Source of the DNA: Chiloscyllium plagiosum
Taxonomy: Eukaryota
Reading direction: 5' to 3'
Assembly (NCBI RefSeq): GCF_004010195.1
Contig: NC_057759.1
Location: 1,285,212-1,349,211 of the forward strand
Length of the DNA stretch: 64,000 nucleotides
Shown here: piece after piece, positions 27,123 through 63,732 of the stretch
Position numbering within the stretch: the first letter of the stretch is position 1
Layout: each line of letters starts with the position of its first letter
Made by a program: the position numbers and the translations under genes
The notes under the pieces: generated by a model
What the model was told of the DNA's origin: nothing
What the model saw: the letters and a program-made list of their open reading frames with translations, nothing else
The model's database searches: none

Positions 27123-28162
27123 CTTGGGGGAGGGGCGTTGGGAATGCGATAGGTGGAAGGAGGTTAAGGTGAGGGTGATAGGCTGGAGAGGGGGTGGGGG
27201 CGGAGAGGTCAGGAAGAAGATTGCAGGTAAAAAAGGCGGTGCTGAGTCCGAGGGTTGGGTCTGAGAAAAGATGGGGGGAGGGGAAATGAGAAAGCTGGAG
27301 AAATCTGCATTCATCCCTTGTGGTTGGAGGGTTCCTAGGCGGAAGTTGAGGCACTCCATTGCCATGGTCTGGCGATGGAGGAGGCCAAGGGCCTGCATGT
27401 CCTTGGCGGAGTGGGAGGGGGCGTTAAAGTGTTCAGCCACAGGGCGGTTGGGTTGGTTGGTGCGGGTGTCCCAGAGGTGTTCTCTGAAACGTTCCGCAAG
27501 TAGGCAGCCTGTCTCCCCAATATAGAGGAGGCCACATCGGCTGCAGCGTGTGCAGTAAATGATGTGTGTGGAGGTGCAGGTGAATGTGATGGATATGGAA
27601 GGATCCCTTGGGGCCTTGGAGGGAAGTGAGGGGGGAGGTGTGGGCGCAAGTTTTGCATTTCTTGCGGTTGCAGGGGAAGGTGCCAGGAGTGGAATTCAGG
27701 TCCTTGACCTCCTCCATCTCCAGACTATGGCAACACGACGCCTAGAGGAAGAGCGCCTCATCTTCCACCTTTGAACCCTCCAACCACAAAGGATGAATGC
27801 AGATTTCTCCAGCTTCCTCATTTCCCCTCCCCCCACCTTTTCTCAGTCCCAACCCTCGGACTCAGAACCGCCTTCTTGACCTGCAATCTTCTTCCCGACC
27901 TCTCACCCCCACCCCCCTCTCCAGCCTATCACCCTCACCTTAACCTCCTTCCACCTATCGCATTCCCAACGCCCCTCCCCCAAGTCCCTCCTCCCTACCT
28001 TTTATCTTAGCCTACTTGGCACACTTTCCTCATTCCTGAAGAAGGGCTTATGCCCGAAACGTCGATTCTCCTGCTCCTTTGATGCTGCCTGACCTGCTGC
28101 GCTTTTCCAGCAACACGTTTTTCAGCTCTGATCTCCAGCATCTGCAGTCCTCACTTTCTCCT
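27123..28162 (+). mobile_element. 5'-truncated Penelope-like element (Neptune-like GIY-YIG) with an inverted 5' segment
   Basis: Minus arm 27118-27693 encodes PGTFPCNRKKCKTC and the GIY-YIG region; plus arm 27694-28162 encodes RRLEEERLIF then the pLTR ending CTCACTTTCTCCT; TSD agaac(t/g)tgcaggga at 27109-27122 and 28163-28176. Confidence 0.9.
28036..28063 (+). ncRNA. Minimal hammerhead ribozyme core in PLE pLTR
   Basis: CTGAAGA-A-GGGC-TTAT-GCCC-GAAAC-GTC: CUGANGA and GAAA boxes, 4-bp stem II, palindromic ACGU stem III, GUC site. Confidence 0.75.
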
Positions 28163-28212
28163 AGAACGTGCAGGGAACCTACTGATATATTTGTATCATT
28201 CCTTGGGTGTTT

Positions 28213-28345
28213 TGAGGAACGATCACATGACCAGAAAAATTAACTCTGATTTCTCTGCAGAGATGCCGCCAGTCCTGCTGACCTTTCCCAGCAATGTCTT
28301 TTTTTATAACGAAATGACAGAATCTGCAATTCTTTCAATTTTTAT
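28213..28345 (+). mobile_element. Degenerate PLE pLTR, second subtype
   Basis: taactctgatttctctgcagagatgccgccagtcctgctgacctttcccagcaat. Confidence 0.6.
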
Positions 28346-30779: not shown

Positions 30780-31790
30780 GCTTCCACAGCATTATGTTTT
30801 GGAAAACTCCCCAGGGTTCAACAGTCTCTGAGTGTCGCCATTTATTGTCATTTCAGTGCGGTGTGGCCTGCCTGTATCTAACACTGTGACCCCTGTTTTC
30901 AGACGTGCCAGCATAGGGGAATTATGATCCCTGTTTTCAATCCGTCTTGACCTGTCAGAGTTTTATAATTTCTCTTGAGATCTCCATCATATTCCTAAAC
31001 CTCATGGAATAACGGTCAAGTTGACCAAACATCTGCTCCTACAACAAGACTGACGTCCCAGAGATCAGTGTGGTCATCTCTCGCTGCACTCCTTCAATGT
31101 CAGTTTTGTCATTCATTAAGTAAAAAGACCAAAACTGCATACAATACTGCAAAATGTTCGCGATGATGTCTCGGCAAGGCCCTATACAACTGCAGTAAGG
31201 CACTCTTAGTCCTGTACTCAAATCCTATTAAATAAAGTCAACGCACCATTTATCTTCCTAACTAATTTCTGTTCCTGCAATATTGTTTTCAGTGACTGGT
31301 GTACAAGGAGATGCGGATCCTTTTCAATGTTACAATGACGCAATTGGTAGGCCTATATACAGCGGTCAGTGTGGCAATGACATTCCCCATATTGCCTCCT
31401 GGCTTCAGAACTCACTGCCCTGCAGGACGTCAAACTGCCCTGCAGTTAGAGGTCTGCACAGAAGGAAAAAAAAAAGCATAAATCCCTTTATTGATCAAAA
31501 TTTTAAATCAATTCCTTTTCAAATGATAGGACGCCATTCTATTTTTTCTAACAAAGGGCAGTGTCACATTGCTCTTCATCAGCCAAGCATTTGCCATTTC
31601 ACTCCACTTGTCTCAAGCAACTTGTAGCTTTTTCACATTATCCTCTCCTGCTCACAATCCAACATCGTCTAGTGCATTATCAGACTTTGAAATATTGCAT
31701 TTGATATCTTCAATCAAATGTTTGAGACGTATTGGGAGTAGCTGGTGCTCAATCCTCGTTTCCTGTGATATCCTCCAATAAAAGGATACT
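30780..31790 (-). mobile_element. Old CR1 fragment carrying an internal non-CR1 insert (31330-31500)
   Basis: ORF LQYCMQFWSFYLMNDKTDIEGVQR; paralogous to 58880-59700. Confidence 0.75.
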
Positions 31791-31804
31791 TTGATTCCGG
31801 TATT

Positions 31805-32580: not shown

Positions 32581-32803
32581 TTTAACGCACTGTCTCCTGC
32601 CTGCTCTCCCATTCTAATATCATGCCGTTATTTTAGCCACAATCCAATAAGATTTGATTTTGTATAATGGCTTGTGAATTGATCAAAAATCTTTCCAAAA
32701 ATCCAAACACATTGCATACATTGCTTTTCCTTAATTGTTCAAACAGACAGTTCCTCAAATATAAATCCCATTTCAAAATCTATGTAGATGTTGGTTATGC
32801 CAT

Positions 32804-33021
32804 TAAAGCTCAGCAGGTCAGGCTGCAACTGAAGAATAGGAGAGTCGAAAATCGAGCATACGCTCTTCATCAAGAATGTTGGCACCATTTGTGATAAAGA
32901 GCTTGTGCTAGAAAAGTCTACTGTCCTGCTCCTCGGTTGCTGCCTGACCGGCTGTGTTTTTCCAGTACCACACTTTTTGACTCTGATCTCCAGCATCTGC
33001 ATCTGCAATCCTCACTTTCGC
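32804..33021 (+). mobile_element. Old head-to-head PLE pLTR pair
   Basis: Minus copy 32804-32878 and plus copy 32891-33021 ending ctcactttcgc; decayed hammerhead cores. Confidence 0.8.
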
Positions 33022-33111
33022 TCTATCCTATTAACCAGTCGAGTCACATTCAGAGATCTGAAGTGAAGCAACGTCTCAGCATCCTAGTGTGCTGTCAGTC
33101 ATTGAGTATTC

Positions 33112-33203
33112 CTGATGAAGAGCTTATGCCCGAAACGTCGACTCTCCTGCTCCTCAGATGCTGCCTGATCTGCTGTGCGTTTCCAGCACCACACTCTCGA
33201 AAA
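33112..33203 (+). mobile_element. Short PLE pLTR insertion with hammerhead core (33112-33139) and 10-bp TSD
   Basis: CTGATGAAGAGCTTATGCCCGAAACGTC; TGAGTATTCC at 33103-33112 and 33204-33213. Confidence 0.85.
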
Positions 33204-33813
33204 TGAGTATTCCCCTGTCTGGTTTCTTATTCAAAAGTGCATCACCTAATACTTGTCACAGTTATATTCCATCTGCCAATGATCTGCGTACCTGACCATT
33301 CCATCTATATCTTCCTGCAAAATAAGACCTCCCTCCTCAGTGGCAACCACCCAGACAATCTTTATGATTCATACAAATTGCTTATCACGCCCCCCGCCCC
33401 ACGTCTACGTGCCCTCCACATTCATATCTAATTGTTTTATGAATAACACAAATAATAAGTAACAATTCCCTAACCCTGTGGTACAGCAGGGGACACTGAT
33501 CTCCAGTCACTCAAAGAGCCCTCTCCCACCACCCTCTGTCTCCTGCAACTAAGAATATCTTGGATGTAACTTGTCAAGTTATCCTTAATGCCATAATATT
33601 TTACTTTCTTTATCAGTTTCCCATGTGGGGTATTGTCAAAGGCCTTGCTGAAAATCCCATAAATGACCTCTTCAAAAAACAATCAAATTCGTTCATCGTA
33701 ACTTTCTTCTGATGACATCATGCTGACTATCCATGTTCAAACCTTGCATCTCTAAATGGAGCTCAATTTTCTCCTTTCCTATTTTCTCCAATATTTTCCC
33801 TAAAACCGACTGC

Positions 33814-34137
33814 TCATAGAATCCCTACAGTGTGGAAACTGCCCCTTCGGCCCAACAAGTCCACACTGATCCACACCCAGACCCATTCTCCCTATCCTAC
33901 ATTTACCCCTGACTAATACACCTAACTACACATCCCTGAAAACTATGGGCAATTTAGAATAGCCAATTCAACTAACCTGTACATCTTTGGACTGTGGACA
34001 GAAGCCAGATAATCCAAAGAAAACCCACGCAGACATAGTGAGAATGTACAAACTCCACATAGGCAGTCACCCAAGTCTGGGATTGAAGCCGGGTCTCTGG
34101 TTCTGTCAGGCAACATTCTAAACTGAGCTACCATGCT
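33814..34137 (-). mobile_element. HE1-type V-SINE inserted in an antisense CR1 (33215-34410)
   Basis: V-SINE body and tail; CR1 RT motif FSKAFD on the flank. Confidence 0.85.
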
Positions 34138-34408: not shown

Positions 34409-35041
34409 TTCTGGAATGATTCAAAAAATGAGAGGAGATTGCAGTGAAACTTATAAAATTCACACAGAGGGACCGACTAAAACAGGAGCGTGGAGAAGTG
34501 TTCTCAGGCAATGTTTGGAAGAATCCCAAGATATTCTGCAAGTATATTAAACAGAACAGATTAATGAGGGAACAATTATGGGCCTATTAAACACCAAGGC
34601 GACAATCTGGGTGTGACGGTGCGGACCGTTGATAGATCCTGAAGAAGGGCTTATGCCCGAAACGTCGATTCTCCTGTTCCCTGGATGCTGCCTGACCTGC
34701 TGCGCTTTTCCAGCAACACATTTTCAGCTCTGATCTCCAGCATCTGCAGACCTCACTTTCTCCTTCATCCTCCTTCTCCCAAGTAAAGCAGATGTAATGC
34801 TTTCATGTAACGATCTATCAACGGTCCGCAGCGTCACACCCAGATTGTCCCCTTGGTGTTTAATAGGCCCATAATTGTTCCCTCATTAATCTGTTCTGTT
34901 TGATATACTTGCAGAATATCTTGGGATTCTTCCAAACATTACCTGACAACACTTCTCCACGCTCCTGTTTTAGTCGGTCCCTCTGTGTGAATTTTATAAG
35001 TTTCACTGCAATCTCCTCTCATTTTTTGAATCATTACAGAA
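34409..35041. repeat. 230-bp inverted duplication (arms 34409-34638 and 34812-35041)
   Basis: Arms are reverse complements with about 6 mismatches and no indels by eye; near-identical ORF text LQNILGFFQTLP appears on both strands. Confidence 0.95.
34639..34763 (+). mobile_element. Short PLE pLTR element with intact hammerhead core (34639-34666)
   Basis: CTGAAGAAGGGCTTATGCCCGAAACGTC...CAGCATCTGCAGACCTCACTTTCTCC; 16-bp direct repeat CCTTCATCCTCCTTCT at 34397-34412 and 34762-34777. Confidence 0.9.
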
Positions 35042-35170: not shown

Positions 35171-35474
35171 ATGGTGGCTGCACGGTTTGAGGCACTCTGC
35201 CTCACAGCGCCAGAGACTCGGGTTCAATTCCCGCCTCAGGCGACTGACTGTGTGGAGTTTGCACGTTCTCCCCGTGTCTGTGTGGGTTTCCTCCGGGTGC
35301 TCCGGTTTCCTCCCACAGTCCAAAGATGTGCACATCAGGTGAATTGGCCGTGCTAAATTGCCCGTAGTGTTAGGTAAGGGGTAAATGTAGGGGTATGGGT
35401 GGGTTGCGCTTTGGCGGGTCGGTATGGACTTGTTGGGCCGAAGGGCCTGTTTCCACACTGTAAGTAATCTAATC
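35171..35474 (+). mobile_element. HE1-type V-SINE
   Basis: V-domain and tail nearly identical to 6666-6993. Confidence 0.95.
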
Positions 35475-40554: not shown

Positions 40555-41880
40555 ACAGAACATAAGAAATAGGAGTAAGCGTAGGCCATTCGGTCCCTCA
40601 AGCCTGCCCTTTCATTCAATAAAAACATGACCGATCTGTCTGAGGGCTGAACTTCATTTTCCTGACAACCTCTTCTATCCCATACCTTGCCAGTATGTCA
40701 AAAACCCATCCAACCCATCTGTAAATGCTCTCAGTGATCCAATCTCCAAAACTTCTCTGGTCTAGGGAATTCCAGACATTCAATGCCTTATGTGACAATG
40801 CATTCCTTTGCATTTAAGGTTTCAATCGATGTTCCTTATTCTTTATCTATGTCCCCGAGTTTTGGATCCTTCCCAGGAAGGGAAACACTTGCTCAACATC
40901 TATCTTGTCAATCCCCCTCTGTATCTTGCATGTATCAGTAATATCGCTGCTCATTCATTTCAATTACAATGGACAATCGACTCTCCATTCTTGACATTCT
41001 TGATAAATCAAAACATTCATCCCAGGAATCAACCTAATGAACCAATCTGGTGACTTGCTGCACCAGCATACTTACTTGATGCTGCATACACAGGAGCACC
41101 CCAATCCCTTTGTATTGCTCTTTTGTTTGTACTCCTCTCCATTAAACAATAACCAGGCTTGCAATTCTCAGTGCCAAAGTGCATGACCTCATCATTTGTT
41201 TGTACAATAAATTTCATCTGTGAATTATTTGCCTCCTCACTGAGCTTCCATGCATCGACTTTCCGATTCCTCACATCTTACTCAACATACTTTTGCGTCA
41301 CCTGCAAACTCAGATATATATATTACACTCAACCCCAGCCTTCATGGCATGTAAATAAGTGCTGCCATAGGACTGATAGTTGTGAAACACCACAAGATAT
41401 ATTCTTTTATCCTGATAAAGACCTATTCTCCCTGACTCCCAAACGTCCGTGTGTTAACCAATCCTCAGTCCATGCTCAAGCAGTATCCGTCATAAATGAG
41501 CTACTCTCTTGTATAAGGATCTTTATTTTGTCGTACTTACAGAAAATATCTAGAAACTTCAATTAACTGTCCACAGTTCCTCTTCATCAAGCCAGCTTTT
41601 TATATTCTTAGGGATCTCCAGCGGACGTTTTCATTATTTTATGCAGCAAACATCATCCCCCTTTCACAAAACCATGTTGACTCTGCGTGAAGCCTTTCGA
41701 CATACCTTGCTATTCCTTCCATAATAACGGACTCCAGCAGATTCTAGGCAATAATTGATAGGCTAAATGGCATAGAGGTTCCTGCTTTCTGTTTCATTCC
41801 CTTGTCGAAGACAGGCGCCACACTGGAGCTTCTCCAGTTTCGCTGGAACATTCCCATAATCCAGAGAGTTATGGAATATT
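40555..41880 (-). mobile_element. Old CR1 fragment
   Basis: agaacataagaaataggagtaagcgtaggccattcgg tail; EVMHFG motif. Confidence 0.75.
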
Positions 41881-41889
41881 TCACACCGT

Positions 41890-43540
41890 GCCAGAATTTC
41901 CCAGAAGACTGGAGGCTCGCAAATGTTTACTTTTACTTAAGAAGGGTTGCAAAGAGATACCTGAGAGCTGTAGACCAGCAAGTGTAATATCTGTGTCAAG
42001 TAGTTTAGTTGAGAAGATTCTGAGAGAAAACATATATATATATTTTGGAAGACAGGGTTTGATGAAGAGTCATCAGCATGGCTTTGTGCGTGGAAGATCA
42101 TGCCTCACAAATTTGTGCTTTGATGAAGTGACTAGAAAGCTGTCGAGGGCAAAATGGTAGGCTCAGTCTACCGTTATGGAGGCGAAAGTGAGACCTGCAG
42201 ATGCTAGAGATTAGAATCGAGAGAGTGATGCTGTGTCAAGCAGTATCCGAGGAGCAGCAGAATCGACGGTTCGGACGTTGCTGTTGAAGGGCTTTTGCCC
42301 AAAACGTTGAATCTCCTGGTCTTTGGATGTTGCCTGACCTGCTGGGCTTTTTCAGCACCACAATCTCATTCGAGATGGAGTTCAGTAGAGCCTTCGATAA
42401 GGTTCCACATGACAGGCAGTTTGTAAAGTAATTTTGAATGGAATTCAGGAGGCACTGGCAAATTGGATAAACAACTGGCTTGATGGCGGGAAGCTGAGGG
42501 CAACATTGGAAGGATATTTCTTGGATTGAAGGCCTGTGACGAGTGGTATGCCTCAGAAGTCAGTGCTGGGCACATTGCTGTTTGTTATCTATGTTTATAA
42601 AATTGCTGATAATGTACAAGGCATTATTAGTAAGTTTACTAATGACACTAAAATAGCAGGTATTGTGGACAGTGACGAAGGTTATCAAAAATTGAAGCAG
42701 GGCCTTTATCAGCTGGAGAAGTGGGCCAACAAATTGCAAATGGAGTTTAATATAGGTAAGTGCGACGTCTGGTATTTTGAAATGCAAATAAAATGATGAA
42801 TTTTATGGTGAATGGTATGGCCTTTGGAAGTGTAGTGGAACAAAATGACCTTAAATTTCAGGCACATGGTTCTCAGAAAGTGGACTCACAGATAGGCAGG
42901 GCAGTGAAGAAGATTAATGTCACACTGTCCGTCATCAATCAGGGCATTGAGTATAGTAGTTGGGAAGTTATGTTGCAGTTGTACAGGACGTTGATGAAAC
43001 TGCACTTAAATTGTTCTGTTCAGTTTTGGTCATCTTATTATTGGGAGGATTAATTAAACTGGAAAGAGTTGAGAAGAATTAACAAAGATGTTGCCTGACT
43101 CAATAGTTTGAGTTTAAGGGACTGGTTGGACAATCTAGGACTCTTCTCGTTAAAGCATAGGAGACTGAGAACTAATCTTATCGAGTTGTATAAGATCATG
43201 AGAGGCACGGATAGGGTGCGTGCACTCAATATTTTGCCCAGGGTTGGGGGCTCAATGACTAGATGGCATTAGTTCAAAGTTAACGTGGAAATAATAAAAG
43301 GGAATCCGAAGGGAAACTTTTGTATACAGAGGGCGGTACACATATGGAATGAATTGCCAGCAGAAGTAGTTGAGGTGGATAAATGAACAAAGTTTATAAG
43401 GCATTTGGACAATGACATGGATAGGAAAGGTTTAGAAGGGTATGGGCCAAGTGTTAGTGTGGATGGACAATTTTGTCAGGACGGACCAGTTTGGGCCAAA
43501 GTGCTTGTCTCCGTGTGTGGGCCTCTATGGCTCTATAAAT
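41890..43540 (+). mobile_element. CR1 RT to 3' end, interrupted by a PLE pLTR pair
   Basis: QHGFVRGRSCLTNL, SGMPQKSVLG, KFTNDTKI; tail gcttgtctccgtgtgtgggcctctatggctctat. Confidence 0.9.
42178..42367 (-). mobile_element. Head-to-head PLE pLTR pair
   Basis: Minus copy 42178-42276 with the complete 3' end; plus copy 42281-42367 starting ctgttgaagggcttttgcccaaaacgtt. Confidence 0.8.
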
Positions 43541-46522: not shown

Positions 46523-48310
46523 TTGCTCTGCTAGAGGAAGGATTGTTAAACTTGAGACAGTGCAGAAAAGATTTATAACGATTTTCGGGTACTGAAGGAT
46601 TTGAGCTACAGGAAATCGCTGAATAGATTGAGCCTTTCACATTTGGACTATCAGAGGCTATTGGCGACATGAAGGATGTTTATAAAGTCATGACATTCAT
46701 GGGTAGTCTGAATAGCCAAGGTTTTTTTTAGCAAAGGGGAGTCCAGAACTACAGGGCATACGTTTTAAGACGGAAGGGGAAGGATTTAGAAGGTATGTTA
46801 GTGGTAACGTATTCAGGTAGAAGGTGGTTCGTGTACCTAAAGTACTGTCAGAGGAAGTGGTGGAGACTGACACGTTTAAAACATGCCTTGATAGGTACAT
46901 AATTAGGAATGCTTTAGAGAGTAATCTCCAAAAGCTACCAAATTGAACTAGGTCAGTCGAGGATACCTGACCGGTGTGGACAAGTTGATGTAAAGGGTCT
47001 GTTTCTGTGCCATATCACGTTCTGAGTGATGAGGAGAAATTCTGAAAGTGCTTTTGGAGTGAGAATTCTCGTTCCAGAAGTTTGTGATGCCTCTATGTTC
47101 AATTTTTTCTAACGTTGAGTTCGTTAAATATTTGACATGCAAGGGAGTCATGGATAATGGGATACTGACAGGAAAGTGGGGCTGAGACCACAACTAGAGC
47201 AGCCCCATTCTTCGTGCCTGTTGGACAAAGTTCAAAGTGAATAATGATTCACTCCTGCTCCTTAGTCCTACATTCTTATGTCCCATTGAACGCCTCAAAC
47301 CTGCTAAACAGGAGGACTTGGAGGTTTTAGACTGCTATCACAAGATGCACAGAAACAGAGGAGTCCCTCAAGAGTGTCACACACGTTAGGGGTGATTTGA
47401 AAAATGCAACTGAAAAACCAAACTGTATATAAACCGCAGACCCTCATTCGTCTTTATAGAGCTCACAAACTTTGAATCTTTATAGAGCTTCCCCTCTATG
47501 CAACTTTTACTTCATTTGTTAGTCATGTTGTGGACCTTTTTCACTGTGAACACAGCCCCCATAACACACCTAAAATTTCTGGAAGATTTTCTGTATCTTC
47601 CTCTGTCAGACAGAACTAATGTATTCCCCTCAGTTGGGGGTGGAGGTGGGTGGGGTGGGGAGTCTGGGTGGGCGGAACTGGCTTCCGTTACTGAGTAAAT
47701 ACATCAGAGCACAACACCTGGGAGATGATGGACATGGCGCCCACTCGTGTTCTGAAAATTCTACACTCATAGCAGTTTAATGCAACTGTTACTTCATGGT
47801 CACTGACAGCACAGTCCTCTCCCAAGTGTGAGGTTGCAGGTAATGCTAAAGCAGATGACATAAAGCTGTGACCGCTTCATTTTCGAATCAAATAGGCTTC
47901 CCACTTTGCACCTGGAGTAGGTCCAGGTATAGACAAGAATAATATTGTGATCAAAGTACTTGTAATTGGGAGAGTGACGAGAAGAGAACTGCAACCGGAA
48001 TGGTGAGACAATTGTTTATTTACAAACTGCGGCAGAAGTGTATTATGGAGGTAGCGGTGAAAAAGTTTAGTGTGAGAGAATATGGAGATATATGTCAGCG
48101 CAGGGCAAAATTGGCCACCGTGGTAGTGAACACCTCTGCTCCTCGTCATGTGTTTGTACGTGAAGAGTACGAACTTCATGTAATTGGAATGCAGTTTTTT
48201 GGCTGAAAGCGAATAAAATACTTCATATTTTTGCCAAACATAGATAACAGAAATAATGATGGCTTTCAGAACAATTTACAGAATTAATAAATAGACAGCG
48301 ATAGACTTAC

Positions 48311-48485: not shown

Positions 48486-48937
48486 TGTTGGAACATTCGT
48501 GTCTACTGGTCTCAGATTCTGATCTCTCTCTCCCTCTGGAGTTGTTGCTCCCAATCGTGTTAAGGACGATGCTGCTGCTGAAACTATGGAATAACAAATT
48601 GAAAGAATCCCCTCACTTCAACAAGAGGGAAGCCCTCCAAGGACACAATTAGGTTTCATGGAGACTGATGTCAATCACACTCACTGAACAAACAGCTCCA
48701 GTTAATCCTTTGCACTGCAACACTCTTAATGGGACAAAAGAAGCTGGTCTGGGTGGCATGTTGTCATTGCCTGCTACTGGTCTTATCGACCATATCCAAT
48801 TAGTTAACAATGTTAGACGTAAGAGAGATGGACTATGGTTTCTCTTCACACGCTCGATGATTCTGTTGTGATATCCACATGTAATGCTCCATGTAACCTC
48901 GTTCCTAAAAGCCAATCGAGAGGTCGTTACTACACTC

Positions 48938-49003
48938 CTGATGAAGGGCTTTTGACCGAAACGTCGATTTTCCTGCTCCTCGGGTGCTGCTTGACCTGCT
49001 ATG
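48938..49003 (+). mobile_element. Short PLE pLTR fragment with hammerhead core (48938-48965)
   Basis: CTGATGAAGGGCTTTTGACCGAAACGTCGATTTTCCTGCTCCTCGG. Confidence 0.8.
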
Positions 49004-49071: not shown

Positions 49072-50613
49072 ACAATTGTCAATCTAAAAACTATCTCTGG
49101 GCACAACTGCGGATTTCGCTGAACTCCGCTCCCACTGCTGTAAAAAGGCAATATTGCATCTTTAACAATAATTTGTTTATAAGGTGAAAACATGTTATTG
49201 CACAGTTTATATGCCTTTTTTCAGATTTTCTGGCCTTAGCCCAAAAGCAAATGTTGCATTTACAAATGCTATGTTCATTGGGATAAAAGAATCAGAGACA
49301 GAATGTATATCTCATTGGTTAAGGAACAGAAAGGAATATGAGACAGTACGTGTGGTGACTGGAGAGGATTAAAGTGATATCGCTCAGTCACCAGTTGATA
49401 CACATCTTGATACACAGAATAAAATAAAATGCAGGGATATAAATAGAATAAATTTGGAACAAGTAATGGCGAGTGCCAATGCAAATTAAACAGTGTAATT
49501 CGAAATGGAAGACAAGAAATGATTTAATATACACTGTTTAATCACTGTTTGTGCCGATAGATAAAATTGGTCATATGTGCAGAACCCTTCATTTATAATT
49601 TATGTAACATTAAACCTTTAATTGATCCTCAGACGAGTTCTTACATTTCCAATTTCTGTGATTCCCTGGCCAAGACACTCATTCTATTCGGGATATATAT
49701 TATATTATTCAGCTCCTCGTATCCCAACCTATTTCAACCAACCGCCTTTCTACCAGGAAATAAATGCTTTATCCTGCTGGGATCTATCACAACTTGTGTC
49801 GTCATATTATTGGATATAAAAGTTGTTGCTTTCGATCCAGAAGTTCAACATGTTACTCTGTTGTACTGCCACTGTACAAAGGATCACATTACACGGGAAT
49901 TGCCAGAACAAATAGAGAAGTCTACTTCTGTCGATAACCTAGTTTTCACTATTTTATTAATTTTCTCCTTATTATATCTGCTCCCTCTCTTTCTCTCTTG
50001 GTAGCCAGTTAATAAATCCTCCAATTGGTTTCGGTGCCTTATCTCTCAAAACTCCTTCTGTCAGTTCATATCTATTGGTAACACTTGGTTGGAAAGTGAT
50101 TGCAATTGAAAAACATAACTGAAAAAAAACAAGGGGCATGAGCTGGCCAGAGTTTATTGAAGGGCGAGCCTAGCAGGGAAGATGGTGAAGCAGCAATGAC
50201 AGGAGTCATTCGGACACAGCTGAAAATCATCTGAACGAAGAAGATGCATACTCAGGGAGGGCAAGGTAAATCTGGATGATAAGGGGAGTCAGGGACAGCA
50301 ATTAACCAAAAGCAAAAGTTAAAATGTGGTGAAGTTATTGAAAATCTAGGGGATGAATATAGAGGAGAACTAGTTCAAGTAATAGGGAGGATTAGATGAA
50401 ATACGACGGTAAGCTTTTTAATAATCTAACAGAAGATTGCAAGAGTTTTAGGATAAATAACAGCGAAGAGAGGCAAGCAAGAGGAAAGAAACTGTTGCAA
50501 AGTGGGCCTAGAATACTTATGGGAAACAATGAATTGGCAGAGAAAGTGAATACATGTTTTGCACCCGTCTTTACAGTAGAAGACGCCAGCAATCTGACAG
50601 AACATCAAGAGAG

Positions 50614-53522
50614 GTGAAAATGTGTACTGCAGATGCTGGAGATGAGAGTCAAGAATCTGGTGCTGGAAAAGCGCAGCAGGTCAGGCAGCGTCCGAGGAGC
50701 TGGAAAATCGACGTTTCGGGCGAAAGCCCATCATCAGGAATGAGGCTGGAAGCCTAGGGGTTGGAGAGGTAACTGGGAGGGGGTGGGGCTGGGGGCAAGG
50801 TAGCTGACAGTGCAATAAGTGAATGGAGATGGAGGTAAAGGTGGGAGAGGGGGATGGAGTGGATAGATGGGAAGGTGAACAGATTGATCGGATCATGAGG
50901 TTGGTGCTGAGCTGGAAGGTTGGACCTGGGGGTGAAATGAGGAAACTGGTCAAATCCCCATTGATGTCATGGGGTTGCAGGGTCCCAAGGTGGAAGATGA
51001 CGCGTTTTTCCTCCAGGATTTTGGTGGTCAGGGAGTGACAATGGTGGAGGCCCAGGATCTGCATGTCCTCAACAGAGTGAAAGGGGGAGTTGAAGTGTTC
51101 GGCCATGGGGCGGTAGGGTTAATTAGTGTGGCTGACCCAGAGATGTTCTCCTAAGTGCTGTGTGAGTAGACATCCTGTCTCCCCAATGTATAACGCATCG
51201 GAAGCAGGATGGAAGGAGGTGTAATTCAGGTAGCTGTGGGTTTTCAGACAATGTCAATTTTGTGTCGGTCAACGTTGATAGAGATGGAGAGATCCAGGAA
51301 AGGACGAGGGGTATCAGAGATAGTCCGGATGAATTTAAGGTCGGGGTGGATTGTGGTGGTGAAGTTGATGAACTGTTCAACAACCTCGAGAAGCATCAGG
51401 TGGCGTTGATGCAGTCATCAATGTAGTGGAGGCAAGGTAGGGGAATGGTCCTGTTGTAACTGCAGAATACAGGCTGTTCCACATAGCCAACAAAGAGACA
51501 GGCACAGCTGGGGCCCATGCGGGTGACCATGCCCACCCCTTTCGTCTGGACGAAGTGGGAGGATTCGAAGGAGAAATTGTTGACGATGAGGACCAGTAAA
51601 GCCAAACTAATACGAGTGTCAGTGGAAGGGTACTAGTGGGGACTTTGGGAGAGGAGGAAACGGTGGGTTTGGAGGCTCCGATCATTGTGGATGGAGGTCT
51701 ATAGGGACTAGATGTCCAGGGTAAAGATGAGGCATTGGGGGCCAGGGAACGGACGTGTTGGAGGAGATTGCGGGCGTGGGTGGTGTCCCGAACGCATGTG
51801 GGCTTCTTCGACCGGGGGGAGAGGACGGTATCGAGATATGTGGAGATGAATTCTGAGGGGCTGGAGCAGGCAGAGATGATAAGTCATTCGGGGTAGTCAG
51901 GATTGTGGATCTTGGGTAGGAGGTAGACTCGGGCTGTGTGGGGTCTTGAACTATAAGGTTGGAAACTGTGGGTGGGAGATCCCCTTAGGTGATTAGTTTG
52001 TGTACGTTTGAGGAAATGATGGTTTGGTGATGAGAGATGAGGTCATGGTCGAGGGGATGATGGTTTGGTGATGAGAGGTGAGGTCATGGTCGAGGGGCCA
52101 GTAGGAGGAGATAACTTCAAGTTGGCGCCTGGCATCAGCGGTGTCGAGGTCAGTGCACCAAGCTACCACTGCAAGATCACCCCCCCCCCCCCCACACACA
52201 CACACCCCACCCCCGTCAGCTGGTTTGATGGTGCGTTTGGGTTGGTGCAGAGGGAGTGTAGAGCTGGACGTTGTGAGGATGATACGTTGGAGTGGGGAGG
52301 GGTTTGGACAGTTTGAAGTGATAAAATGTCTCGGCAGCAATTGGAAATATAGAGGTCGAGGGCTATTTACAGACCGTCACAGGGTATTCACGTGGATGGG
52401 GTATATTGCAGTCGAGCAAAGGTGCCCTCATAAGATGTGCAGGAGTCTTAATTGTAAAAAAAAAGCTCGCTGAGAGAGGCAGCAGAAAAAGTTTTCAACG
52501 TCATAATGCGTATTGAATTTATTGATGCATGAATGCAGGGGGTTGAAGATAAGGCCTTTGCTGAAGACTGGTCATTCTTTCTCATTGAGGGGGAAGTCTG
52601 AGGGGGGAAGGTGAAAACTCGCAGGGCTGGGAGCAAGGAGCGGTTTTATGGCTGGAGCTGGGAGTGAGGGCGCACACTGTAACTGGAGTGGGTGCGGGAG
52701 TGGGGTGAACGGGGCTAATGTCATTTGCAGAGATGATGCTCACCCCGGCGTTCTTGGAATGGGGGGAGTTGACAGTGTGATCCGTGGGGCCCGTGTCGCG
52801 TGTGTATAGTGGCATAAATGTGGGTAGAAGTGGTTGTGATGATGGCAGCTGTGGGGTCAGAAGTGGCAAAACGTGTGATGTAGGTGATGTCAGTGGAGGT
52901 GGAAGTGGCTGCGGCAATGATCACAAACTGGGCAGAAGTTGTAGGACATATGGCGTGGCTGATGGAGGAAGGTACAGACGTGGCTGCGGCAGCACAACAG
53001 TGGGGGCAGAAGTGTAGTTCCAGTTGAGCTTGTGTTTGTCTCAGTGGTGGCGGATCTCATAGTGATTGTGGCAGTGGTTGTATGGCCATCAGTCACGGAG
53101 GCGGCATGAGGAGCCGTGGCTGCAGCCTGTCGGGCGGCGGGGACGGAGATGGCGTCGATTACTGCAGTGATGGTGGCTGGCAAAGCCTCGCGGCTGTCGC
53201 CAGCCAAGCAGCTCTGGAGGCCGGGTAAGCTTCTGGAATGTTCGAGGAATGCTGACAGTTGAGGTGGATATATGAAAGTTTTTTTTTATACTTACAGTAT
53301 TTAATGCTTAAATGGTGTAGAAATATTGTTTTTAATTTTATAAATTCTTCTGAGGATAAAATGCAGTAGGGTCCTTTGCAATTCTGAGAGCGTGTGGCCC
53401 TCAGCTGAGAGAGGGCTGACTGTAGATCAATAAAGTGGAGGCGCATGGATGCGACTGTGGAACGGAGGATCCGAAGAAAAACCGTTGCTGGAAGTTTTGA
53501 ATTTGTACTCTTTATTGGTTGT
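50614..53522 (-). mobile_element. Long degenerate Penelope-like element (N-terminal region, RT, GIY-YIG C-terminus, pLTR) inserted in an old CR1
   Basis: RT motifs FSFESSHFVQTKGVGMVTRMGPSCACLFVGYVE and YIDDCI; AEHFN...LEEKRVIFHLGTLQP; hammerhead core at 50737-50710 (CTGATGATGGGCTTTCGCCCGAAACGTC); degenerate TSD aacatcaagagag / aactacatgagag. Confidence 0.9.
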
Positions 53523-53849
53523 AACTACATGAGAGTCAGGAGGCAAAACTGAATGTAGTGACCACCACTAATGAGTAAGGTTAAAGCTCTGAAGCTGAAT
53601 ATTCACGCAGAACAGTTTGACTACACGCTCTAGTTCTAAGGAGTTGGCTGTTGAGATTTTGAGGGCATTGCTGGTGATCTTCGATGAATAATTGGAATCA
53701 GGAAGGGTCCCAGAGGACTGTCGAATATAACCCCCACCCACACAACCCGTTTAAGAAGAGAGGACGCAGAAGACAGCTAGTTATATGTGGTCAGGAAATT
53801 TGAAACTGTTGTTAGGAGGTAATAACGCCAGATAATTGACACGTTCTCC

Positions 53850-54720
53850 ATTTCTTCGCACTCCAACACACATCTTCCAGGTGAAGCAACATTTACTGGC
53901 ACTCTTTCACTCCAGTCTCCTGTCATTGCTTCTCACAATGCAGCCTACTTTCCTGAGACCAAACAGAGACTGCTTTCTGGAGCACTTTCACTCTGTCTGT
54001 AGGAAAAATTCTGAGCTTCTCATTCCTTTCCATTTCAATAACCAACATTACTTTCATGCTAACATTTCGATCCTGGGCTGATGCAATGTTCCAATGAAGT
54101 ACACCTTAAGCTTGAGTAACACCAACTTTACAACTTGATACGTTACAACATTTAATTCCACAACATCACAGCCGGAACCCATCATGACTGTTTTCCATTT
54201 TTCATACATTCTCGCTTCTGGTCTTCTGATGAACTTAACTTTTCATCTTGCACTTAATAGAACACATTCACGTTTTTCGCAAGTGCCCATTTCCCACATT
54301 CACAAAATAATTTCCACCCAATTTACATCTGTTTCTCTTTCACCACAATTTAAAAAAAACATTGTCCTTTGAAATACATTTTTTTTCCCATCATCCAACT
54401 CCACCTCTGACGGTATTAGAAAACATATTTCCCACTTTTTTTTCAGTTCTGAAGAAGTATCATGTCGGTCGTGAAATGTTGAGACTGTTTTCTGTCTCCA
54501 CAGATGCTGCCAGACCTGCTGACTTTCTCCAGAGATGGACAGGCAAGGAGATACTTCCAATAAAGATTTCTGCATCCCGGGAATCCAAAACAAAATTAAA
54601 ACTTGCTGCAGAAACTGGGAACTTTGACAAAGGGCCACTCGACCGAAAGTTTAAGTCTGCATTCACTCGGCAGATGGTGACAGACCTGTTTAGTTTCTCC
54701 AGCAATTTCTGGTTTTGAAC
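53850..54720 (+). mobile_element. Very old PLE GIY-YIG fragment and two second-subtype pLTRs (54447-54532, 54623-54718)
   Basis: FQVKQH...HFN remnants; tctgaagaag...gaaatgtt...acagatgctgccagacctgctga. Confidence 0.6.
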
Positions 54721-55950: not shown

Positions 55951-56789
55951 ATTTCCGATTGATCCCCATGTGGAGATGGCGCTGTTGTGAAAATGTGACT
56001 GGATTACTAATGCAGACCACTTTAATGTTCTGGCAGCTGGTGGATATTAAAAAAAAATCGAGATCTAAAATCTGGTGTTAGTAATAATGATCTGTAAGCC
56101 AATGGCGATTGTGAACACCAATTTGCTTCTGCAACGTACTTTTAGGAAGCAAATTTCCTGTGCTTTCCTGGTCTGGCTTAAAACTGACTCCAGACAAACA
56201 GACATGCGATTAATTCTCAATGGTCTCTGAAAAGGCCAAACAAGACACTCAATTGTATCAAATTTTTCTGTTGTCTTAACGTACACCCAACACCAGCCTC
56301 GGTACTGGTAAAAGGAATGAGAAGCACAATCCTGTTGATCCTGCAGAGACTGCTATCCTAACTTCTGAGAGCTTGTGACAACGACTACAGACATTTCCAA
56401 CGGACTGCAAAGAAACATCAGGAAGGAGTAGGTCATTCAACACATTGATACTCTGCCCATTCTAGGTCATGGTCAAGTATCTCTTCAGTGCAATTTTCCC
56501 ACACAAATTACACACTCCGTAATGCAATTACAAACATAAAATATATGCCATTAACAGCAGTTGTGGCTTTAGTCCATTGGTTTCGCTCCCCCAGTAAACA
56601 TAATGGTGACTGATCATATTTTCTAGACTCCTGCTCTCGCCTGATAACCTTCGAGTTGAGAAATCCTGATTTATATTGAGTGCCTTAGCTTCCAAAGCCG
56701 TATGTGGGAAAGAATTCCCTAGCTTCACCAGTCTCTCAGCGCAGACATTTAGTCTCATCTAAATGCAGAGTGGCCTGCCTGTTCCTCAT

Positions 56790-58869
56790 AGAGAAAGGCT
56801 TGGCAGAACGGATTAGGGAGAACACAAAGGCATTTTACACTTATATGAGGAATAAGAGCATGGTCAAAGAAAGAATAGGGCCGATGAGGAATAGCATAGG
56901 GAATTTGTGTGTGGAGTCTGGGGAGGCAGGGGAATCCCTAAATGAGTTTTTTGCTTCTGTCTTTTCGAAAGAAACGAACTTTGTAGTGAATGAAACCTTT
57001 GAAGAGCAGGTGTGCATGCTGGAATGGATAGAGATGGAGGAAGCTGATTTGCTGAAAATTTTGACAAGCATTAAGATTGCCAAGTCGCCAGGCCCAGACC
57101 AGATTTGTCCTCGGCTGCTTTGGGAAACGAGAAATGCAATTGCTTGGCCACTTGCGAACATCTTTGCATCCTCGCTCTCCACTGGAGTCGTACCTGAGGA
57201 CTGGAGAGAGGCAAATGTAATTCCTCTCTTCAAGAAAGGAAATAGGGAACTCCTCGGCAATTACAGACCAGTAAGTCTCACGTCTGTCGTCTGCAAGGTG
57301 TTAGAAAGGATTCTGAGGGATAGGATTTATGACCATCTGGAAGAGCTGAAAATGTGTTGCTGGAAAAGCGCAGCAGGTCAGGCAGCATCCAAGGAACAGG
57401 AGAATCGACGTTTCGGGCATAAGCCCTACTTCGGGCTTATGCCAGAAACGTCGATTCTCCTGTTCCTTGGATGCTGTCTGACCAGCTGCGCATTTTAAGC
57501 AACACATTTTCAGCTCTGATCTCCAGCATCTGCAGTCCTCACTTTCTCCTCGACCATCTGGAAGAGAATGGAAATGTGTTGCTGATTAAATGCAGTCAAC
57601 ACGGCCTTGTGAGGGGCAGGTCTTGCCTCACAAAAATATCGAGTTCTTTGAGGATGTGACTAGAAACGTTGATGAGGGTCGAGCTGTGGATGTGGTGTAT
57701 ATGGACTTCAGCAAGGCATTTGATAAGGTTCCCCATAGTATGCTCATTCAGAAGGTCAGGAGAAATGGGATACAGGGAAACTTAGTTATCTGGATACAGA
57801 GAAACCTAGTTGTCTGGATACAGAATTGGCTGGCCAACAGAACACTGTGAGTGATAGTAGAAGGAAAATATTCTACCTGGAAGTCTGTGGTGAGTGGTGT
57901 TCCATAGGGCTCTGTCCTTGGACTCTACTGTTTGTAATTTTTATTAATGACTTGGATGAGGGGATTGAAGGATGGATCAGCAATTTTGCAGACGACACAA
58001 AGGTTGGAGGTGTTGTTGATAGTATAGAGGGCTGTTGTATGCTGCAGCGGGACATAGACAGGATGTAGAGATGGGCTGAGAGGTGGCAGATGGAGTTCAA
58101 CCTGGATAAATGCGAGATGATGCATTTTGGAAGGTCGAATTTGAACGCTGAGTACAGGATTAAGAATAGGATTCTTGGCAGTGCGGAGGAACAGAGGGAT
58201 CTTTGTGTGCAGGTACATAGATCCCTTAAAGTGGCCACCCAAGTGGACAGGGTTGTTAAGAAAGCATATGGTGTTTTGGCTTTCATTAACAGGGGGATTG
58301 AGTTTAAGAGTCGTGAGATCTTGTTGCAGCTCTATAAAACTTTGGTTCGACCGCACTTGGAATACTGCGTCCTGTTCTGGTCGCCCTATTATAGGAAAGA
58401 TGTGGATGCATTGGAGAGAGTTTAGAGGAGGTTTACCAGGATGCTGCCTGGACTGGAGGGCTTATCTTATGAAGAGAGGTTGACTGAGCTCGGACTTTTT
58501 TCATTGGAGAAAAGGAGGAGGAGAGAGGACCTAATTGTGATGTACAAGATAATGAGAGGCAGAGATAGAGTCGATAGCCAGAGACTATTGCCCATGGCAG
58601 AAATGACTAACACGAGGGGTCATAGTTTTAAGCTGGTTGGAGGAAAGTATAGAGGGGATGTCAGAGGCGGGTTCTTTACACAGAGAGTTGTGAGAACATG
58701 GAATGCGTTGCCAGCAGCAGTTGTGGAAGCAAGGTCTTTGGGGACATTTAAGAGACTACTGGACATGCATATGGTCACAGAAATTTGAGGGTGCATACAT
58801 GAGGATCAGTGGTCGGCACAACATCGTGGGCTGAAGGGCCTGTTCTGTGCTGTACTGTTCTATGTTCTA
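56790..58869 (+). mobile_element. Young 5'-truncated CR1 (HER1-like) LINE
   Basis: KSPGPDQI, NYRPVSLTS, DFSKAFDKVPH, NFADDTK, RPHLEYCV; tail gaagggcctgttctgtgctgtactgttctatgttcta; several stops and frameshifts; inserted in an older antisense CR1. Confidence 0.95.
57346..57551 (+). mobile_element. Fold-back PLE pLTR insertion with perfect 15-bp TSD
   Basis: Minus arm 57342-57427, plus arm 57433-57550 ending CTCACTTTCTCCT; GACCATCTGGAAGAG at 57331-57345 and 57552-57566. Confidence 0.92.
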
Positions 58870-59883
58870 GTGGCGCCTTGATTTTACATGTTTCACAAAG
58901 ATTTTCACTAATTTTCCAAAACCCCATGGAATAAAGGCTCAGTCTACCCAAACCCTATTCTCACAACAAGCCAGCCATCCCTGAAATGTGTCTGGTAATC
59001 CCTGAGTGTCAGATTTGTCCTTTATGAGGTAAGGAGACATAAACCGTATACAATATTGTACAATGTTCAAGATGGAGCCCCACAAAAGTCCTGTACAGCT
59101 GCAGTAAGACACCCTCACTCCTGCACTCAAATCTCCTTGAAATGATTGTCAACACACCATTTATCTGACTAACTGCAATCTGCTCCTGCAATGTTGTTTT
59201 CAGGGACTGTTGTGCAAGGAGATCCAGATCCTGTTAACGGTTACAGCTATCCACTTGGTGAGTCTATGTACACTAGACCGCTTGTCGATTCCATTTCTAG
59301 TACTGACTTCTGGCATCACAACTCACTGCCTTGCATGGATGTCGGAGGTCTGCGCAGAAGTAACTGAAAAAAAAGAACATAACTCCCTTTCTAGATCAAC
59401 ATTTCTCAATTAATTCATTTTGAAACGATGGGATGCTGAACGATTTTTCCTGATAAATACACAAAGTCACATCAAACACATTGCTCTTCATCTGCCACGT
59501 ATATGCCCAGTGACTCCACTTGTCTCAGTCACCTTGGAGCTTTTCTTACATTCTCCTCATTCACTCACAATCTGACATCAGTTAGTGTCATCAGCAGACT
59601 TGGAAACATTGTGTGTGATTCCCTTACCTAACTGTTTGATATGTATTGAGAATAGCTGCGGCCCAAGCATCGATCAATGCGATGCCCCATTAGCCATCCG
59701 GTCCAAACAAATATACATTTATTCCTTTTCACTGTTGCCTGTCAGCTGACCCGTTGTAACACCATGTCCGGAACGTGACCCCTTCCCACGTGCTTTTACT
59801 TTGCACAGGAGGCTTAGCACTTTCTCAAAAAATCTTACCAAACATCCAATTTTTTTTGCCACCATTGCTTTTCCGTAATTTAT

Positions 59884-60206
59884 CACGGTGGCACAGTGGT
59901 TAGCACTGCTGCCTCACAGTGTCAGTGACCCGGATTCAATTCCCGCCTCAGGCAACTGACTGTGTGGAGTTTGCACGTTCTCCCCGTGTCTGCGTGGGTT
60001 TCCTCCGGGTGCTCCGGTTTCCTCCCACAGTCCAAAGATGTGCAGGTTAGGTGAATTGGCCATACTAAATTGCCTGTAGTGTTAGGTAAGGGGTAAATGT
60101 AAATGTAGGGGTAGGGGTACGGGTGGGTTGCGCTTCGGCGAATCGGTGTGGACTTGTTGGGCCGAAGGGCCTGTTTCCACACTGTAATGTAATCTAATCT
60201 AATCTA
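59884..60206 (+). mobile_element. HE1-type V-SINE
   Basis: Full V-SINE body with (TAATC)n tail; absent from the paralogous site near 32735. Confidence 0.95.
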
Positions 60207-60469
60207 CCAGTCGATTTCTCAAATATCTTTCCCATTTCATATATCGACATTGACTTTGCCTATGCCCATTACTGTCAGCATCAATAATTACTCTAAATCG
60301 TTTATTTACTAATTTCACTCTATTTCCATTTCTCATCAGACTTACGTTTTCTTATGTCACTTTTCTGTGAATACAGAACTGAAGTTGTTGTGTCATCGAC
60401 CTGCCATTTCCCTGTTCTCCATTCTCCATTCTTTGATTTCAGACCGTAAGGAAGCTGACACTTGACTAA

Positions 60470-61800
60470 AAGGCACAGCTGCTTTCTGTTCACCCTCTCC
60501 ATGCTCATTATAACCTTATAACTTAATTACTTACCCTCTGAAGTTTCCCTGCTCCAAGGCAAACAACCTGAGCTTAGCCAGCCTCTCTTCATAGCTGACA
60601 TGCTCCATCCTAGGCAACATCCTAGTGAATCTCCTCTGCATCCCCTCCAGTGCAATCACATCCTTCTTCCTGTAATGTAGCACCCAGAATGGACAACAGA
60701 ATTCTATCTTGGCGTAAACAAAGTGCGACATCGCTCTTATAGTCTATGATTCAATGAATAAAGGTTATGTCTATGGTCCTGCTTGACTCTCCAATTATCA
60801 TGTCCCGTCACATTCACAGTTCTGTGAAGAAGAACCATCTGAGATTCATCGTGTGCTGCCATTCATTGAGTATTCCCCTGTCTGGATCCTTCTTCGAAGG
60901 TGCATCACTTCATATCTATCAAGTTTGCATTCTATCTGGCATTGATCTAGCCATCTGACCATTCCATCTGTAGCTTGCTCTGATATAAGTCCTTCCTTTT
61001 CACTGACAACCATCCAGCCAGTCTTTGTGTCAAAGAAAACTTACTTATCACACAACCCGCATCCCACATTCACAATTGCATCAGTTATGAATACCACACA
61101 TAACAAGGTACATAGCAGTGACCCATATGATACACTACTGGACATTTGTTTCCAGTCACACAAATAGCTATTGACCACTACCCTCTGTCTTCTGCCACTA
61201 AGTTAAGTTTGGATGCAACTTGGCAAGCCACTAATGGGTCCTACCTGTTCGCTCGTTTTTGTGTTCTGCTGACAAGCTTGTAGATTACCTGGAGGTTGTC
61301 CCTAACTTTGCCTGCTAACAGTTTCCCATGCCCCAGCTTGAGTTAGTCCCTTCTGAGTGAAGGATTTTATGCTTTTTGCAGTCTTAATGCCCTGTCCCTT
61401 ATCCTGCGATGATATGCTTTATGTAGGAATTGGATAGCCAGAAAAGCGTTCTGTTTATTTCCACTTTGACACATGTTTTCTGAATTTACTAAATTTTACT
61501 GTGACCACTTCTCGTTCTTTGAATTTGTAGAGAACAGAAGACAAGTTTCCCCATCAGGCAATCTTGCCATCTGAGATTCTAATCTGGAAAACGTCCTTTA
61601 CACTTCCTCTGTGGTCAGTATACTTTTTCTTAGTTTGAGTCATCAACACTGTACATAATACTCCAGGTACAGTCTCACCAACATTCGATGCAAATGCTTC
61701 ATGATGTCTTTACATTTATATCCGATTCCCTTCAATGAAGACCAACATAACTTAACTTTCCACTTACATGTATTCCTCCAAATATATTGCACAGTAGTTT
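60470..61800 (-). mobile_element. Old antisense CR1 fragments
   Basis: ALEGMQRRFTRMLP and LVRLYLEYYVQ motifs. Confidence 0.75.
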
Positions 61801-62496
61801 TATTTGCGAACCCACTGTGTTGGTTATTGTGGATCATCCCTTTATAGATCAACATTTCTCAATTAATTCATCAGATTGTTCTAAAATGCCACATCTTCCG
61901 TATATTCTAAAAAGAAATTCGAAGTTTATCAAGTATGAATTCTTTTTCAAGAATGCTTACTGTTTCTCTACAATGGTGTTGTTAAACGTGGTGTTGTTAA
62001 ATATCCATTACCTCATCCTATATAATAGATTTTAACAGTTTCCCTATAGACGTGAAGTTAATTGATCTGCAGTTCTCCACATTGTTTTCTTTCATTCGTA
62101 AATGGTTGGATCACGTTTACTACCTTCTAGTCATTCAAAGTGGCTTCCAACTGTATAGGGTGCAAAGGGAAATGAAATACATTCATCGACAGTGCATTTA
62201 GTACATCTGTTGTTGCTTTTTGTTTCCTGGCATTTTGATGTACATCTGGTCCGTCAGACTTAACAATGCTCTATCCAACTAGATTTTCAAGTGCTACGTT
62301 GTTACGGATATGAACTGGCTTTATGTCCATAGTTCCACAATTCTCAAGTTTTGACTCTTGGATATTTTTGGAATCTTCCACCATGAAGACAGTTCCAAAG
62401 TAACTGGTTGGTTTTTATAAAATTCGTTCTTATCCACAGTAAATACCCCGTCCCCATTACAAATTTCCACGTTTAACTTTGCTTTTATTTTGGAAC

Positions 62497-63732
62497 AAAG
62501 TGAGCACTGCATATGCTGGAGATCAGAGTTGAGAGTGTGGTGCTGAAAAAAACACAGCAGTTTAGGCAGCATCCGAGGAGCGGGAGAATCGACGTTTCGG
62601 TAAAAAGAAAGACCTTCATCACGAATATGTGTTGTGAGCTGAGGGGGTGGAGAGATAAATGGGAGTGGGCTGATGCTTGGAGGAAGGTAGCTGAGAGTGC
62701 GATAGGCAGATGGAGGTGGGGTTATCGTGATAAGTCGGAGAGAAGAGTTGAGGTGTTAGGTGGGAAGGAAGATGGGCAGGTAGGAGAGGTCACGAGGGTG
62801 GTACTGAGTTAGAAGGTTGGAACTGGGAGAAGGTGGAGGAGAGGAACTGAGGACACTAATGAAATCCGCATTGATGCCGTATGGAAGATGAGATGTTCTT
62901 CCTCCAGGCATCGGGTGATTAGGGTGTGGCAATGGATGAGGCCCAGCACCTGCTAGCCCTTGACAGAGTGATAGGGGGAGTTAAAGCATTCGGCCTCGGG
63001 CAGTGAGGTTGGTTATTGCAGGTGTGCCAGAGAAGCTCCCCGAAGCGCTGTGCAAGTCAGCATCCTGTTTCCCCAGTGGCGAGAAGTCCACATCAGGAGC
63101 AACGGATACAGTAAATGGCATGTGTGGAAGTGCAGGTAAACCTCTGATGGATGTGGAAGGCTCCTTTGAGGCCTTGGATGGAGGTGAGAGGGGAGTTGTG
63201 GGCGCAGGTTTTGCAATTCCTGCAGTGGAAGTGAAAGGTGCCGAAAGCATGTGGCGATTGGTAGGGGGCTTGGACCTGACAAAAGAGTTGTGAATTCAAT
63301 GGTCTTTACTGAAAGTGGTTGGGGTGGGGAGGGACATATATCTGTTGTGGTGGCATGTGTTTGTCGGTAGTTGAAATGGCAGAGGATGATGCGATGTACA
63401 TCGAGTTTGGTGGGGTGGTCAATGATGCTATCCAGCGCATTTCATTCACTTCCCGCATCTTATCCCTCGAAACCCATCCCTTGAAACCCACCCCTCCAAT
63501 CGCACAAGGACGGAACTCCCTTGGTCCTCACCTTCCACCCCATCAACTCCGTATATGTCGCATCATCCTCCATCATCCTGCACCATTTCCACGACCTACA
63601 AAACGACCCCATCGCTAGAGATATATTTCCCTCTCCACCCATATCCGTTGTCCATAAAGATCATTCCCTCCATAACCTACTTGTCAGATCCACAGCCGCC
63701 ACCAAACTACCCTCCCCTCCCAGCACCAGACT
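62497..63732 (-). mobile_element. Truncated Penelope-like element with an inverted 5' segment
   Basis: Minus arm 62497-63420 (pLTR; CRNCKTC...FTCTSTHAIYCIRCS GIY-YIG linker); plus arm 63421-63732 (LTFHP...HFHDLQNDP..IFP). Confidence 0.85.

Follow-up and report, generated by a model that had tools for sequence, protein, structure and literature searches.

Minimal hammerhead ribozymes are known from the pseudo-long terminal repeats (pseudo-LTRs) of Penelope-like elements (PLEs), the repeats in which PLE transcription start and promoter are located (PMC2377424). In the accessible text of PMC4209133, the metazoan examples have a type I core, an extra base before stem II and a palindrome for helix III, and they are mostly single dispersed motifs, some of them in close opposite-strand pairs. 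All of this holds for a motif found in a 64,000-nucleotide stretch of the Chiloscyllium plagiosum genome (NCBI RefSeq assembly GCF_004010195.1, contig NC_057759.1, positions 1,285,212 to 1,349,211 of the forward strand), here called the window. However, stem II has only 4 bp in this case and stem I 2-4 bp, and the copy number is far above the 4,000-9,000 of coelacanth and Xenopus. The ends of the single motifs, which the accessible text of that paper does not map, were mapped here, and they are the subject of this analysis. Most attention is given to the shortest copies, or minis, which hold only 90-130 bases.

Three further systems resemble it closely. Positions are numbered from the C of CTGA (+1), so that the A of the preceding ATTC is -4 and the predicted cut, after GTC, is at +28. 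In the Poseidon element PAc of the green anole, as described in the accessible text of PMC11167929, the hammerhead lies near the start of the open reading frame (ORF), two internal priming sites bound the tail, and the template is uncut RNA, on which internal priming at the two sites was seen in vitro. The present element is alike in these respects but has its ATG at +163, after the tail, whereas that of PAc is inside the hammerhead, and its linker has a cysteine (Cys) motif; the PAc account in that text is without run-off copies ending at the RNA start. Endonuclease-bearing PLEs of the Neptune/Nematis type (PMC8557442 and PMC3846280, accessible text) are also alike, with GIY-YIG after the reverse transcriptase (RT), a Cys-rich linker, an inverted 5' copy, a 30-40 bp tail that is often one-sided and duplications of 8-16 bp, but here most copies are leader only and a rule of pairing, long with short, is near strict (72 of 78 pairs). 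Finally, the non-LTR retrozymes (PMC7229834; bioRxiv 10.64898/2026.07.22.740005; both in their accessible parts) are non-coding, hammerhead-bearing and related to PLE pseudo-LTRs. Certain tandem units of 224 and 320 bp fit them, but the minis do not form head-to-tail arrays, have one minimal core and do not end at the cut.

Ends of the minis

The minis are real single insertions of the ribozyme-bearing end of a PLE, and they are probably run-off insertions of the first 90-130 bases of its leader, primed internally on uncut RNA. The PLE RT would start from either of two internal sites of the uncut RNA, and synthesis of complementary DNA (cDNA) would run off the RNA 5' end, a predicted capped start 4 nucleotides (nt) before the core. 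At that end, the cDNA may join the target, giving a solo mini; it may join another cDNA, begun at the alternative priming site and on the opposite strand, giving a head-to-head pair; or it may jump further down the leader or the ORF start, giving a pseudo-LTR-like partial tandem. The hammerhead would be a passenger in these copies. What is observed is fixed ends, target duplications, identity with the ORF leader, palindromes with one long and one short arm, and composites that are single insertions.

The fixed 5' end is seen in DNA that was not selected for the element. In 569 kb of such DNA, the anchor downstream of the core has 88 matches, or about 150 copies per Mb, and 54 were kept for alignment (85% identity, not at a gap or edge). 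Their 5' ends, which are alignment offsets good to about 1-2 nt, lie at -5 to 0 in 23 copies, at -9 in one, beyond -180 in three, and within the core or tail in 27. Filtering by the anchor only gives 26 at this 5' wall, 30 inside and 5 long. When unselected DNA is pooled with stretches chosen for an intact core, 149 copies reach the core, of which 113 end at 0 to -6, 7 at -7 to -40 and 29 beyond. The wall is present in all sorted subfamilies and is weaker in subfamily B. Most minis start at ATTC, and because this lies some 32 nt ahead of the predicted cut, the 5' end is not a cleavage end. The 3' ends fall into two clusters, at about +88-96 and +123-128 (about +90 and +127). Target-site duplications of 7-16 bp flank 40 of 78 solo minis, compared to 4 of 379 controls. 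The first-pass annotation of the window had already placed the 5' ends near CTGA instead of spreading them uniformly, and had proposed mobilisation by the PLE machinery; the 113 of 149 copies and the duplications bear out both points.

A separate observation concerns loci L117 and L258, in which the element is immediately preceded by a repeat of its own first few bases, as though the polymerase had slipped back on reaching the template end. These repeats recall telomerase-like reiteration.

Pairs, composites and the extra G

The head-to-head pairs follow the rule mentioned above: 72 have a long and a short arm, 6 have two short arms and none has two long ones (p 6e-16). These 78 pairs are an anchor-based count; an earlier, alignment-filtered count gave 14 pairs, 13 of them long with short. 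The rule fits the one-sided tail described in the accessible text of PMC8557442, together with the two priming sites of PMC11167929 in its accessible text.

Copies that continue into the ORF have the same wall. The set comprises 29 ORF-start loci (28 of 30 after two overlaps were dropped, plus L124). In 8 of them the ORF start breaks at scattered points (+187 to +275) and a new core begins within 3-7 nt; in 14 the next core lies 11-196 nt on, mostly after 3' untranslated region (UTR) sequence; L173 continues up to the limit of the sequence read, and 6 are without a next core. At L159, L165, L170, L171 and L178, a single duplication, identified by eye, flanks the entire composite. In these composites the template thus reached into the ORF, and the copy joined again at the 5' wall.

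The base before ATTC gives a hint of what the wall might be. Among the subfamily-A matches listed without C at this position, 100 gave G in 64, A in 19 and T in 17, compared to 13 G in 100 one base further in (both hand counts among matches listed); many of these matches are inverted arms. For solo copies, 40 listed matches were fetched with their flanks, and four rows that make up two perfect palindromes were left out. The counts were G 17, A 7 and T 4, and with one duplicate removed 16 of 27 are G against 25.6% expected (p 2e-4). Control ends at -3 to 0 have G in 5 of 24 (Fisher p 0.01 against the solo ATTC ends), and where a single non-target base precedes ATTC in subfamily A it is G in 3 of 4 cases. 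A 5' G has been interpreted as a reverse-transcribed cap in L1 and SVA (PMC2912911, accessible text). The extra G here fits a cap in subfamily A but is weak in B, and the RNA end was likely capped.

Could the wall be a place where copying tends to fail? Ordinary 5'-truncated copies, primed at the 3' pseudo-LTR and truncated not at an RNA end but at a hot spot that fold-back or microhomology creates at the foot of stem I, are an unlikely source of the minis. Position -4 is the first base of the 5' strand of stem I. The G at -5 in subfamily A complements C at +33, so that fold-back at stem I could supply it, and this G is weaker in B, in which +33 is mostly T. Some pairs have their joint at +33 (L143), the core itself contains many ends, and single motifs are termed probably truncated PLEs in the accessible text of PMC4209133. 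However, a polymerase going from 3' to 5' would meet the 3' side of the structure first, and the wall is at the 5' edge. In addition, the ends drop from 113 within 7 nt to only 7 in the next 34 nt, the composites with a template into the ORF have the same wall, and the G of subfamily B is still slightly over expectation (p 0.014).

Several results weigh against run-off copying itself. Half of the unselected copies (27 of 54) have their end within the core or tail, and continuation into the 3' UTR is seen in 9,660 subfamily-A copies, which reach 11 nt or more upstream, and in about 72 of 100 subfamily-B matches among those listed (hand count). The G can be explained in other ways: besides the fold-back just described, 8 of the 17 solo subfamily-A G's lie within the target duplication, and in 2 of the 16 copies with G the element briefly reiterates its own start. 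Subfamily B is weak, with 52 G to 48 A in 100 matches among those listed, where 41:59 is expected (hand count), and with 6 G to 6 A in solo copies. No clear UTR-tail chimeras were found in the long copies, hence no sign of strand transfer between subfamilies, and the RT-region matches in 20 loci gave no intact full-length element. In 2,154 reads of one single-cell RNA run, there is no pile-up of starts or ends, the cut included, and 94% of the reads continue into unrelated sequence; they are mostly read-through from host transcripts.

Ribozyme, parent element and tandem units

The pattern CTGAWGANGGGCN4GCCCGAAACGTC has 7 matches with at most 3 mismatches in the window, compared to 0.00 expected (100 shuffles). 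The three cores that had been called intact match exactly (28036, 34639 and 50737 on the minus strand), the two said to carry one stem mismatch have one each (33112 and 48938), and there are two mismatches at 57434 on the minus strand and three at 42281. The decayed or partial copies reported at 32.8, 42.2, 57.4 and 62.6 kb are present. So are the extra base after CUGANGA and a stem III of ACGT only. Stem I, put at 2-3 bp, has 2 bp, then a U.U mismatch, then one further pair. Stem II was said to be kept: it covaries across subfamilies in the genome sample, but in the window it is broken at 33112 and 48938. The four copies assigned to a second subtype do have a downstream block in common, GATGCTGCC, but no core is intact in any of them.

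The features given for PLE minimal hammerheads in the accessible text of PMC4209133 were found, namely the CUGANGA and GAAA cores, the extra base before stem II, the G10.1-C11.1 pair and a palindromic helix III. Stem II variants in the genome sample include GGGC/GCCC with six loops and GAGC/GCTC in 2 copies, with GGGTC/GACCC and AGGTT...ACCT in the second subtype, and stem I is ATTC/GAAT in subfamily C. On its sequence, the motif is the known minimal, dimer-type hammerhead of PLE pseudo-LTRs, with self-cleavage predicted. The helices covary across subfamilies, although the counts of compensatory types are small, and this points to probable selection on the ribozyme in active lineages, with decay in dead copies. 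The predicted folds of monomer and homodimer do not yield the active form, the leader and ORF start together show no unusual folding (z -1.39), and an Rfam scan of the window gave no hammerhead family match at E up to 1. An Rfam match to mir-680 at 57.4 kb was set aside as the palindrome there. An exact 30-mer of the motif has 31,859 copies genome-wide (3.56 Gb) and its reversed control has 0. At least 5 copies in 1.76 Mb belong to a separate family of minimal hammerheads, whose stem II has 6 bp (GTTATC...GGTGAC type) and whose flanks differ.

The parent is an endonuclease-bearing PLE. RT-region matches are often followed by the 3' UTR, (C/T)ATTC, the core and the tail, in that order. RT followed by GIY-YIG was found upstream of the repeat (RVT_1 E 8e-5 in L134, GIY-YIG E 0.009), both scores coming from decayed copies and lying under the curated cut-offs. 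The linker between RT and endonuclease has a zinc-finger-like Cys motif, C-x4-C-x2-C, as in the Neptune clade; such a motif is common to Neptune and Nematis (PMC8557442, accessible text). Copies running beyond the +127 tail enter the element's own ORF, which is open for the 99 codons read. Because the mini sequence is located after the 3' UTR as well as before the ORF, it is the pseudo-LTR leader, and the optional 30-40 bp tail and inverted copies of a pseudo-LTR are also seen. An exact 47-mer of the ORF start has 522 genomic copies, less than 2% of the core count. Long open frames at the RT-region loci were tried as intact elements and rejected, being gap-filled or in other frames.

Some derivatives do recur. 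Two junctions, with 40 and 68 exact matches on many chromosomes and often nested, define tandem units of 224 bp (L154, L156) and 320 bp (L151, L174, L177, L180), each with two or three cores and with the ORF start kept to +205 or +252. Here the head-to-tail arrangement with a hammerhead in each unit, which the minis lack, is found, and these units are rare, retrozyme-like, non-autonomous PLE derivatives, self-propagating and non-coding. Keeping the ORF start agrees with the finding that the anole PLE template requires sequence downstream of the priming sites in vitro (PMC11167929, accessible text). The minis are without this sequence and for that reason are likely dead ends.

A SINE-like (short interspersed nuclear element) non-autonomous family, in which each mini would carry an internal promoter for its transcription and be recopied by the PLE protein, is improbable. 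It would account for the fixed ends, the duplications and the very high copy number, and true non-autonomous derivatives exist, as the 224- and 320-bp units show. CTCATTC at the element's 5' end, which we take to be initiator-like, is also on its side. However, such a family would be expected to have diagnostic changes absent from its autonomous partner, and these were not found: 9 of the 10 haplotypes present in at least 3 short copies, covering 142 of 145 such copies, are shared with long copies that carry the UTR, and there is no mini-only haplotype of note in a comparison of 221 short with 60 long copies, in which rare lineages could be missed. The separate lineage suggested in the first-pass annotation is thus not upheld. 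The ORF start kept in the recurrent derivatives and the downstream requirement of the anole template also argue against it.

It is very improbable that a retrozyme-like cycle, with hammerhead cleavage and circular RNA defining the unit, made the minis as its monomers. The tandem units and their recurrent junctions would suit it, as would a joint in RNA contigs that leads from about +255 back to -5 (L173:1426-1673) in 2 of 4 contig runs, X1 and X3. But only 5 of 232 5' ends are at the cleavage position, where about 4 are expected, compared to 67 at -5 to -3, and the minis span an uncut site and are single or head-to-head, giving no same-strand dimer. The exact RNA junction tested is absent from the genome; it may come from a related species with such a composite copy, or from RNA circles, which contigs cannot show.

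The window and the record of copying

Table 1. Element copies in the window, with strand and state
Feature	Positions	Strand	Remarks
Inverted arm of PLE insertion	27118..27684	-	Cys-rich linker, GIY-YIG coding remnant, 3' UTR; PF01541 E 0.009, under curated cut-off
Direct arm of the same insertion	27694..28162	+	ORF end, 3' UTR, CATTC, core 28036-28063, long tail; not a mini
Decayed head-to-head pair	32805..33019		32805-32878 minus, 32886-33019 plus
Solo mini	33108..33195	+	ATTC (-4) to about +84-90; core 33112-33139, one stem II mismatch
Young solo mini	34637..34764	+	-2 to +126; intact core 34639-34666
Decayed head-to-head pair	42180..42366		42180-42274 minus, long tail; 42278-42366 plus, short
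Short solo mini	48933..49000	+	Core 48938-48965 with one mismatch; without 3' part
Decayed PLE, about 3 kb	50612..53620 (5' limit approximate)	-	Ends in core 50737-50710 and tail; not a mini
Head-to-head pair joined within core	57342..57551		Short arm 57342-57435 minus, long arm 57433-57551 plus
3' fragment of PLE	62497..63242	-	Decayed core about 62625-62591; not a mini
Second-subtype copy	3184..3265	+	Decayed core
Second-subtype copy	28209..28333	+	Decayed core
Second-subtype copy	54446..54532	+	Decayed core
Second-subtype copy	54621..54715	+	Decayed core

The solo minis of the main subtype in the window are only three (Table 1). Those at 28036, 50737 and 62625 (the last two on the minus strand) had been read as minis, but each forms the 3' end of a longer PLE fragment and is preceded by 3' UTR and GIY-YIG coding sequence, so that two of the three intact cores do not belong to minis. 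The decayed copies at 32.8, 42.2 and 57.4 kb are likewise real, but each is a head-to-head pair instead of a single element. The pair at 57.4 kb has a 15-bp duplication (57331-57345 and 57552-57566), and the mini starting at 33108 has one of 10 bp at 33103 and 33204, overlapping the element start. There may be one of 8 bp around the two arms of the first insertion (27115 and 28169). The mini starting at 34637 is 98% identical to a long copy, and no target duplication was found in its flanks. The PLE at 50612..53620 has N-terminal, RT-region and GIY-YIG remnants, the N-terminal part resembling the ORF of L173 by eye.

Other repeats and genes share the window. Open frames at 3367-3912, 41762-42160, 44095-44670, 46133-46636 and 56689-58788 resemble, by eye, CR1/L2-type LINE (long interspersed nuclear element) fragments, and the last of these carries the inserted 57.4-kb palindrome. 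Dispersed repeats of 300 bp, about 70% alike and with a tRNA-like box, are probably a SINE (5620-6962, 16056-16313, 26740-27045, 33815-34112, 35197-35462 and 59881-60186). Minisatellites lie at 21146-21359, 23627-24040 and 24524-24706, with periods of 26, 65 and 23 bp. On the minus strand, 19678-20616 codes for a rhodopsin-family seven-transmembrane (7TM) receptor in two open frames (Pfam 7tm_1), probably a broken gene.

Neither the element nor its ribozyme is of a new kind; their value is in the unusually clear record of copying that the ends preserve. At about 150 copies per Mb, this is a major repeat class of the genome. Run-off copying makes predictions at the level of single bases: the RNA should start at -4, priming should occur near +90 and near +127, with each site used once in a palindrome, and any template that can be reused should require ORF-start sequence. 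A wider proposal, to which we give a little less than an even chance, is that PLEs make a strong-stop cDNA as retroviruses do. The capped leader would be copied to its end from +90 and from +127, with the two primings on opposite strands of the target, and solo minis, palindromes and new pseudo-LTRs would arise according to whether the run-off end joins, pairs or jumps. The open-access literature yielded no paper on strong-stop reverse transcription in PLEs, and figures or supplements of PMC11167929 and PMC4209133 may show such short copies. If true, the proposal would explain both how pseudo-LTRs are regenerated and why the tail is one-sided, with several hundred thousand copies in the genome as its record.

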